64,000 bases of DNA from Escherichia coli (GTDB lineage: Bacteria; Pseudomonadota; Gammaproteobacteria; Enterobacterales; Enterobacteriaceae), in the NCBI RefSeq assembly GCF_024223415.1, contig NZ_CP100500.1; one strand, written 5' to 3'. Position numbers: made by a program. Of the stretch, positions 60,001 to 63,000 are shown piece after piece (the stretch's first letter is position 1; the number at the start of each line of letters is the position of its first letter).

Positions 60001-63000
60001 TAAACAGTGGGCGAAGGCGATTTGCAGCCGGGCAAACTCCCTTACACTTGCCGAATCCGGCAATGTCGTTTTTACTTCGCCCAGTAACGACCGCGAGGCA
60101 ATCATCAACTGCCCCCAAAGTTTGCGCGCTTCAACGTAACGGGCGTACCCGGCATTATTACGAAAACCAAGAAAAATGGCGATGGCGACACCGAGAATGC
60201 TGAACGGTGCGAGGGTGAATTTGATGCCCAAATGCGTGTACCAGGGCAGCATGAAAATAACAGCGATAGAAAAGAGAAAATTGAGTAGTAAGCGCGAGGA
60301 TATCTTGGATAATACTGAGCCATGCCAGACAAAAATACGGCGCAGCCAGTGTTGTTGTGGACGAACGATCATGGTTATCTTCAGGCGTGGAAAAGTCGCC
60401 CTATTAAACGTGATTACGATCACATTCTCAAGACATGACTTACAAATTACCTACAAGCTTACAACATTAACAGGTGCTGCATGTGGCACCTGTTAATGAT
60501 AAAGGCATATAGGATGTTGTAACTAATATAGTGAAATGAGAAACCCGGTCGAAACCGGGTTCAGAGTATTAGCACAACGGACGTACAGCTTCGCGCATCC
60601 CTTTTTCAAGAATCGCATCCAGGTCATTAGCAACCTGCTCGACCAGACCAGGCACTTGCGTCAGGTCCTGCTCCCAGTGGTCTTTTTCTGCCAACACAAT
60701 CGCTACCAGTTCCTGGGTACCGATAACACGGTCACGATGCTGGCTCCAGAGTTGCTGATAACGTTCCAGCCAGTGTGCATCGTCCTGTACCGGATATGTT
60801 TCTCCGTTACGCTCACCGCGATAGAACGCAATCAATGCCGCTAATGCGAAAGTAAGGCGCGCCGGAAGTGTGCCGTTTGCCTTCTGCCCTGCCAGCAGCT
60901 GCGGCAGGATGCGGGTACGGAACTTGGTCATACCGTTGAGCGCGATAGACAGCAGCTGATGCTTAATGTACGGGTTACGGAAACGCCCGGTAACTGCACT
61001 GGCGAAAGATTCCAGTTCATCGCGTGGCAAATCCAGTACCGGAATAATTTCTTCGTAGATGGCTTTTTCAACGAATGCGCAAATTTCAGCATCGTTCATC
61101 GCTTCACCTACGGTATCCAGCCCTGCCTGGAACGCCACCGGCACCAACGCGGTGTGTGCACCGTTGAGTATTGCCACTTTGCGTTCTTTATACGGTTTAA
61201 TATCGTCAACAATCAGCACGTTGAGCGGATATTTGTCCAGACGCAGTTCAGTCGCTAAGGATTTCGGTCCCTGAATCACAAACAGGTAAAAGTGTTCAGC
61301 GGTGTCGAGGAAACCATCGTGATAACCCAGTTCTTCTTCCAGTTTAGCCACTTCATCACGCGGATAGCCGGTAACGATACGGTCCACCAGCGTAGAACAG
61401 AAGCTGTTAGCCTGATCCAGCCATTGAATAAATGCTTCTGGCAGTGCCCACTCTTGCGCATAGCGCAGCACCAGTTCACGCAACGCGTCGCCATTGTAGT
61501 CGATCAACTCACACGGGATGATGATCCAACCTTTATCCAGCGCACCGTTGAAATGGCTAAAACGTTCGAACAGCAGACGGGTCAGTTTTGCCGGATAACT
61601 TACCGCTGGCGCGTCATCGAATTTATCGCCCGCATGGTAGCTGATACCCGCTTCGGTGGTGTTAGAGAAAACAAAGCGCATTTCCGGGTTGTGCGCCAGT
61701 TTCAGGAATTCATCGTATTCACTGTAGACGCTGATTTCACGATTAACCGAGCGAATCAGACGCGCGTCGCTGACCGCTTCCCCCTTCTCATTCAGGCCAC
61801 GGATAATGGTGGTGTACAGACCATCCTGCGTGCTCAGTGACGGCGGGAATGAAGTTTCAATCGGACGAACAACGACCACACCAGAATTCAGATCGGTGTG
61901 CTCATTCAGGAGATCGATTTGCCAGTCAACAAAGGCGCGCAGGAAGTTACCTTCACCAAACTGAATGATACGTTCTGGATACTGCGCACCGGGAAAATCG
62001 CGACGATTTAGTGTTTTCACAATGGGTTCCCTTCTGATTAGTCATACAACCTGTTTGAATTGGTACGACAGGTTAGCAAACTTTAATACGACGAACCCCT
62101 GTTTTGATCAACTCCTGATGATTAATGAGCAGTTTTATGAGAAAAGTGTGGCGCGGATCATGGTTTAATCGAGGAAAAACGCCTTTTCCTGGATCATAAA
62201 GTGGTAGAACACATTGCATTTAAATCGCTCTGAATGAACAAAGATGTCAGACAACTTCCTCACCGTAACGCATAGTGCTGGTACGGTTGCGCCCATCTTT
62301 CTTCGAGCGATACAGACACGTATCGGCTTCGACCATCAATTTATTAAAGTCATCGGTCAGCGTTCGGTACGATGCGCGACCACTACCGACGCCAATACTT
62401 ACCGTGAGATAAAGCGTTTTTTGTTGCCAGGTGAATGGTTGCAGTTCAACGCCTTTACGGATTTTTTCCGCCATTAGCAGACCATCGACAGGATTCACCG
62501 ACGGCACTGCAACAGCAAATTCTTCGCCGCCCATGCGCGCCACCAGCCCCTTATCACCGACAATCTTCTGAATATGCCGGGCAAACACGCTTAACACTTT
62601 ATCGCCACATTCATGTCCATAGTTATCGTTAATACTTTTGAAATAGTCGATATCAAGCAGCATGACAGTCAGATGTTGTGTCTGTTTCAGCGATGGACTT
62701 TTCAGCGCCTCATAAAGACCGGACCGTGAGTAAACCTGAGTCAGAAAATCAAAGTCGGCTCGCAGCGCAACTTGCTTCATTAGCGAATTGATCGCTGCCA
62801 CGCTAAAAGAAACCATAATTGGGCATATCGCCATCGTGGCAATACCGAGACGTGCGGAGAACATTTCCGGAATGGAGAACGGCGAACCGACCGAGATATC
62901 AATCACCGAATTAGCCACCAGTACGATTTCCACCGCACCGGTGACAAAGGTCAACAGACATGTTACCTGCGGCGTATAGCGCACTGCACACCAGATTAAT

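Follow-up and report, generated by a model that had tools for sequence, protein, structure and literature searches.

Repression of uxaB, which encodes tagaturonate reductase, has been attributed to ExuR since the 1980s, when this control was established, and ExuR is a FadR-type repressor of the GntR family. The ExuR operators described for the exu regulon (uxaCA, exuT, exuR and uxaB) have a 19-bp AAnTTGGT-N3-ACnAnTT architecture that is shared by the boxes described here, and the RegPrecise-derived ExuR sites in supplementary file 2 of the regulon study include two for b1521 (uxaB) (Suvorova et al., 2015; PMC4494728). For the promoter, an experimentally validated uxaB start site is given at 1608744 (Table 1 of that paper), and the promoter string AAGTTTG CTAACCT GT..GTA carries CTAACCT marked as the -10 (Table S3) (Peano et al., 2015; PMC4447067). 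When a fragment corresponding to 62022 to about 62325 was placed before luxAB, galacturonate or glucuronate induced it 3- to 14-fold (Rothe et al., 2013; PMC3578941), so the promoter and functional operator(s) lie within that fragment. Here, we describe the sequence between dgcF (= yneF) and uxaB in the window, the whole 64,000-nucleotide stretch of E. coli DNA that was analysed and whose numbering is used throughout. The original prediction had named two regulatory candidates in it, an inverted repeat in the uxaB leader resembling an ExuR operator and an A/T-rich palindrome after yneF.

The interval 62021-62246 is the entire 226-bp dgcF-uxaB spacer, with the minus strand as the sense strand for both genes, and the RefSeq annotation holds no feature between them. 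A 501-bp query around the spacer has a match of 95-100% identity in 5412 of 5426 complete E. coli genomes. We consider it quite likely that this spacer is the uxaB promoter-operator, that is, an extended -10-like promoter repressed by ExuR through an ExuR-type box, here called box B, that covers both the -10 element and the start site. The control of uxaB by ExuR, the promoter and the sites called A and D below are known already. Feature coordinates are collected in the table below.

Features of the dgcF-uxaB spacer and flanking genes, in window coordinates; bits are scores against the ExuR matrix and ranks are those in the 64-kb scan.
Feature	Coordinates	Strand	Details
uxaB (tagaturonate reductase)	60569-62020	-	ORF, 483 aa, GTG start
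GTG start codon of uxaB	62020 to 62018	-	GTG in 79 of 80 Enterobacteriaceae loci
Putative Shine-Dalgarno AAGGGA of uxaB	62033 to 62028	-	with the start codon, 62018..62034
ExuR-type box A, CAGGTTGTATGACTAATCA	62035-62053	-	published b1521 prediction (PMC4494728); 10.4 bits (rank 9); about +11 to +29, leader
First inverted repeat, left arm AACCTGT	62048..62054		promoter-proximal half of box A; transcribed (about +10 to +16)
ExuR-type box B, GAATTGGTACGACAGGTTA	62057-62075	+	holds AATTGGTA; 15.1 bits (rank 3); about -12 to +7 of uxaBp; centre -3
uxaB transcription start	62060..62064	-	62063 by standard -10 spacing and Table S3 string
First inverted repeat, right arm ACAGGTT	62068..62074		weak half of box B; 5 of 6 bases of the -10 hexamer; untranscribed
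-10 element TAACCT	62075 to 62070	-	PMC4447067; with TG at 62078-62077, extended -10-like TGnTAAnnT (62070..62078)
Invariant block TTGATCAAAACAGGG	62097..62111	-	TTGAT-N4-ACAGG part centred about -41.5 from +1 = 62063
GNAT acetyltransferase gene-end homology (..TTLFYKTL-stop) and downstream spacer	62100..62151	-	80% identity over 54 nt
A/T-rich imperfect palindrome	62168..62194		core GGAAAA-ACGCC-TTTTCC, 62173-62189; probably non-functional
ExuR-type box C, AAAGTGGTAGAACACATTG	62198-62216	+	16.9 bits (rank 2); centre about -144
ExuR-type box D, GAAGTTGTCTGACATCTTT	62240-62258	-	published b1521 prediction (PMC4494728); 18.6 bits (rank 1); centre about -186; overlaps dgcF stop codon
dgcF (= yneF, diguanylate cyclase)	62247-63665	-	ORF; stop codon 62247-62249

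The published -10 element coincides with TG-n-TAA-nn-T, a pattern invariant across the 29 genera aligned. If uxaB starts at 1608704, as we take it to do, coordinate 1608744 maps to 62060. Simple sigma-70 and terminator scans made no call in 61900-62400, the uxaB promoter, which has a non-consensus -10, having been missed by the sigma-70 scan. Two other -10 candidates, TATGAC (in box A) and TATTAA (62088 to 62083), were dropped in favour of TAACCT, which is both published and conserved.

ExuR-type boxes were scored with a position weight matrix built from 49 distinct sites of other genes and genomes, with every uxaB site excluded (consensus AAATTGGTATAACAACTTT). In a scan of both strands of the 64 kb (about 128,000 positions), the three best matches, D, C and B, all fell in the dgcF-uxaB spacer, and the best match outside it, at rank 4, reached 12.4 bits. 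Over 384,330 background positions, scores of at least 15 bits occur at 1.8e-5 per position, so that about 0.005 such matches would be expected in the spacer (260 bp) against the three observed. The training sites themselves score 10.3-25.2 bits with a 10th percentile of 14.2, and box B falls within this range. Boxes B and C are absent from the RegPrecise-derived b1521 list, which has A and D, and a search of the accessible literature found no ExuR footprint or ChIP data for either B or C; looking for the box sequences themselves in full texts brought up only an irrelevant hit.

Conservation was assessed in 80 uxaB loci from Enterobacteriaceae, together with an alignment of 29 genera from -95 to the start codon. 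Box B is the best conserved of the boxes in the 80 loci, with an orthologue at -46/-47 from the start codon that scores at least 10 bits in 75 of them and at least 15 bits in 49 (median 16.6, maximum 23); the typical orthologue, GATAAGTTATTACACCAAT, is a near reverse complement of the uxaC operator. Box A has a median of 9.9 bits and a nearly invariant sequence, and the very high conservation of so weak a match, non-consensus positions included, could reflect some other function of the leader. In each of the 51 loci with scores of 8 bits or more for both A and B, the two centres lie 21-22 bp apart. Conserved columns of the 29-genus alignment are TTGATCAAAACAGGG, TG-n-TAA-nn-T, ACCAAT and GGTTGTATGAC, among which ACCAAT (62058-62063), the half of box B lying outside the -10 element, is invariant. 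Within E. coli, positions 61990-62090 are invariant in eight diverse genomes, and of 5348 records that match a promoter 60-mer, 4960 are identical to it. The overlap of box B with the -10 element and start site is compatible with repression, and by score, positional conservation and promoter overlap box B can be classed, from its sequence, as a putative ExuR-type operator box. Boxes C and D are found only in Escherichia and are always 42 bp apart; box C scores 19-23 bits in E. whittamii and in the divergent genome L073 and shows one substitution among the eight E. coli, where its flanks are polymorphic, and box D is retained in Escherichia sp. MOD1 despite a near-total deletion of dgcF.

The first inverted repeat, AACCTGT (62048-62054) and ACAGGTT (62068-62074) with a 13-nt spacer, is exact and was correctly placed by the original prediction, as was AATTGGTA within it (62058-62065). 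The original prediction was right to connect AATTGGTA with ExuR, but for another unit than the repeat: AATTGGTA is the well-matching half of the 19-bp box B, of which the right arm of the repeat is the poorer half. The repeat itself is no operator; it is a by-product, its arms belonging to two ExuR boxes, A (which overlaps the left arm) and B, that stand 22 bp apart over the promoter. Its assignment to the uxaB leader holds for the left arm, which is transcribed, and fails for the right arm, which is the -10 hexamer, with the start site inside the spacer of the repeat. When the 226-nt spacer was shuffled 2000 times with its dinucleotides preserved, 22% of the shuffles held a perfect repeat with arms of 7 bp or more and 3-20 nt between them, as did 29% of real tiles of that length taken from the window; the shuffle frequency means that the first repeat, by itself, does not exceed chance expectation. 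Among the 80 loci and the 29-genus alignment, only Escherichia and certain Citrobacter-like genomes carry the 7-bp repeat. The upstream half of box B has changed by drift in Escherichia and Citrobacter, from TAAGTTAT to TAACCTGT, and its score there falls below those of other genera; most genera lack the repeat while retaining both boxes because they carry TAAGTTAT instead of TAACCTGT.

It is thus very unlikely that AACCTGT-N13-ACAGGTT is itself the operator, a dyad bound by one dimeric regulator, whether ExuR or another: the repeat is exact, straddles the -10 element and start site and is invariant in the sampled E. coli, but repeats of equal quality are frequent in shuffled sequence, most genera have both boxes without it, and ExuR sites are GT-N3-AC 19-mers and not 7-N13-7 dyads, so that the repeat departs from the half-site spacing of the family. 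The published b1521 sites, at 62035-62053 and 62240-62258, also place known predicted ExuR sites partly elsewhere in the promoter region, an outcome that the original prediction had counted against itself. A role of the repeat as an RNA hairpin in the uxaB leader, acting in attenuation, mRNA stability or translational control, is scarcely credible. Pairing of the arms in RNA would be possible at -8.3 kcal/mol, but the published -10 and start site put the upstream arm outside the transcript, and since transcription begins between the two arms, so that the left arm alone is transcribed, such a hairpin is in effect ruled out; moreover, the fold is insignificant, with z-scores of -0.08 (leader) and -1.7 (best 41-nt window), the repeat lacks conservation between genera, and an Rfam search at E <= 1 returned no match. 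The reading of the repeat as a by-product of boxes A and B is the one we retain.

The second predicted element, the palindrome GGAAAAACGCCTTTTCC, is real and lies at 62173-62189, 2 nt away from the predicted 62171-62187; it had been described as right after the yneF stop, yet it begins about 52 nt past the dgcF stop codon (62247-62249). Allowing one mismatch, the arms extend to 11 nt (62168-62178 and 62184-62194); on the dgcF sense strand the palindrome reads AUCCAGGAAAAGGCGUUUUUCCUCGAU and is followed by UAAACCAUG. It is improbable that this hairpin is a dgcF/yneF terminator or a palindromic protein-binding site, and the regulatory role first proposed for it is not supported. Its position downstream of the dgcF stop codon, arms of a quality found in 1.9% of shuffles (and in 5.7% of real tiles) and a fold energy of -10.2 kcal/mol would fit such a role, but the z-score of this fold is only -1.5, with 19 of 200 shuffles folding equally well, and the A/U-rich stem at 62168-62194 has neither a G+C-rich stem nor a U tract, with no terminator called in 61900-62400. 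Alleles in eight diverse E. coli differ by substitutions and an indel that are non-compensatory, and their fold energies span -10.9 to -2.6 kcal/mol; of 4870 E. coli records that match the hairpin 60-mer, only 1238 are identical to it, as opposed to 4960 of 5348 for the one from the promoter, and about 540 further genomes have no match at all; and Escherichia sp. MOD1, E. whittamii and L073 lack the hairpin. The A/T-rich hairpin is probably non-functional, incidental sequence.

The surroundings of the hairpin point to an origin for it. A GNAT acetyltransferase gene is intact (174-197 aa) upstream of uxaB in Citrobacter, Enterobacter, Klebsiella and others, and the E. coli spacer retains two collinear homology anchors to it, TGTTCTACCAC (11/11) and CCACACTTTTCT-ATAAAAC..TTGATCAAAACA (80% identity, 54 nt). 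A tblastn search with the GNAT proteins gave only weak hints in the spacer (E about 0.03-1), the collinear nucleotide matches being clearer. Since the hairpin sits between both anchors, the part of the E. coli spacer that lies upstream of about 62130 resembles the end of a decayed gene, a fast-evolving remnant in which the hairpin seems to have arisen by drift. Box C is homologous to the ..FYH.. codons of the acetyltransferase gene that is intact in other genera, and because in Citrobacter the homologous box C match sits inside an intact coding sequence, part of the similarity of box C to an ExuR site may be inherited from codons.

Upstream of the promoter, the invariant block TTGATCAAAACAGGG holds a perfect FNR-type half-site and is a candidate class II FNR/CRP-type site, the factor that would occupy it at about -41.5 being one that we infer. 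FNR ChIP-seq has given a peak at the uxaB promoter, centred on 1608750 or 1608774 and scoring weakly against the matrix, and the FNR site there is said to overlap a CRP site (Myers et al., 2013; PMC3688515). A CRP site first guessed at 62147-62162 (TGTGG-N6-TCATG) was rejected, as it falls in the non-conserved remnant. The sequence AAAACAgGGTTTCAT, which overlaps the invariant block, is KdgR-like by eye.

Put together as a working model, RNA polymerase would use the extended -10-like TGcTAACCT (62078 to 62070, minus strand) and begin transcription at about 62063, while ExuR would bind 19-bp GT-N3-AC boxes, which are pseudo-palindromes. ExuR on box B would cover the -10 hexamer together with the start site, keeping the open complex from forming, and box A, 22 bp or two helical turns downstream on the same face of the DNA, would probably bind cooperatively or act as a roadblock to early elongation. 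In Escherichia, boxes C (-144) and D (-186) may add affinity or permit looping, and a hexuronate-derived inducer would release ExuR.

A wider and rather doubtful version of this model, which we offer tentatively, has four ExuR boxes and not two, arranged as helically phased pairs, D/C (-186/-144, 42 bp) and B/A (-3/+19, 22 bp), that bracket the promoter and could form a repression loop. Box B would then be the ancestral primary operator across Enterobacteriaceae and box C would have been exapted from the ..FYH.. codons of the decayed acetyltransferase gene, and in E. whittamii and L073 the pairs, set further apart by an insertion of about 20 bp, would stay in helical phase. The points that may be new are modest, namely that B is an ancestral and best-conserved ExuR-type box that is yet unlisted and that C is a second unlisted box, in Escherichia; RegulonDB or the 1986 sequence paper may already record both. 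In the corrected promoter map the -10 element and start site are covered by box B, which among the ExuR-type boxes is the strongest and has the widest conservation; the map may be useful where PuxaB serves as a galacturonate-responsive part or in curation of the ExuR regulon. Annotation of the inverted repeat or the hairpin as a regulatory element is not warranted.

Compared with known systems, the second palindrome is, like a Rho-independent terminator, a stem-loop downstream of a stop codon, but it differs from such terminators in having no G+C-rich stem or U tract, in not being conserved and in going uncalled by the scan. As in the multi-operator repression of gal (OE/OI) and lac (O1/O2/O3), boxes lie both upstream of the uxaB start (-186 and -144) and at or downstream of it (-3 and +19); unlike in those systems, the upstream pair at uxaB is confined to Escherichia, and tetramerisation of ExuR and looping at uxaB are hypothetical. 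The closest likeness is to the ExuR operators of the exu regulon. Boxes B and C differ from these in being unlisted, and in E. coli box B has a degenerate half that doubles as the -10 hexamer, whereas boxes A and D are identical to the listed b1521 sites, and the Enterobacter orthologue of box B, AGATTGGTGTAATAACTTATC, is closely similar to the uxaC operator AAATTGGTGTGATAACTTT.

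The 23 bp that separate ExuR-type boxes C and D, the upstream pair in the dgcF (yneF)-uxaB spacer, vary strongly from one E. coli strain to another. In the window strain this separator has a rare allele, the surrounding 65-mer being identical in only 57 records (coordinates in the table). A comparison of 8 E. coli showed no change in box D and one substitution, in 1 strain, in box C. Box D is still present at the former dgcF stop codon in Escherichia sp. MOD1-EC7003, where dgcF is lost by a near-total deletion and yneG is followed by ~120 nt and then the final dgcF codons. The window strain encodes a full-length DgcF, a 472-aa sensor-domain diguanylate cyclase, whereas for K-12 (MG1655p) the PGAP annotation gives dgcF as a pseudogene of 987 bp, truncated at the N-terminus. 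In E. whittamii (L003) and E. coli SCPM-O-B-8794 (L073), ~20 bp are inserted upstream of uxaB, on the promoter side of box C, so that box C (19-23 bits in these two loci) lies at -206/-207 instead of -187; with an insertion of this length the upstream box pair would stay approximately in helical phase with the downstream pair.

Features of the dgcF-uxaB region and comparison loci
Feature	Coordinates	Strand
uxaB start codon	window 62018-62020; position 1501 of L002-L081
Invariant block TTGATCAAAACAGGG	window 62097-62111	minus
Apparent acetyltransferase gene remnant	window 62100-62216
65-mer	window 62196-62260
Separator of boxes C and D	window 62217-62239
dgcF, window strain	window 62247-63665	minus
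dgcF, K-12	L001 2848-3834
dgcF deletion, MOD1-EC7003	L002 1180-1270

Part of the E. coli spacer appears to be a remnant of a GNAT acetyltransferase gene, namely its 3' end in decayed form. An intact gene of this kind, encoding 174-197 aa with a C-terminal ..LFYKxL*, adjoins uxaB upstream in Citrobacter, Enterobacter, Klebsiella, Kluyvera and Kosakonia, and its ..FYH.. codons are the counterpart of ExuR-like box C. The non-ATG start of uxaB is conserved: of 80 Enterobacteriaceae loci, 79 use GTG, and a single Pluralibacter MAG has ATG. One locus, titled Chryseobacterium sp. 18061 (L065), has a UxaB 86% identical, together with all elements of the enterobacterial uxaB promoter; its contig looks like Enterobacteriaceae sequence that either carries the wrong label or contaminates that assembly.

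Nearer the promoter, AAAACAgGGTTTCAT has a likeness to a KdgR box, as judged by eye. It overlaps TTGATCAAAACAGGG, a block that shows no variation among 29 aligned genera. This block, centred near -41.5 of uxaBp, includes a perfect FNR half-site, and an FNR ChIP-seq peak has been published for the same place (Myers et al., 2013; PMC3688515).
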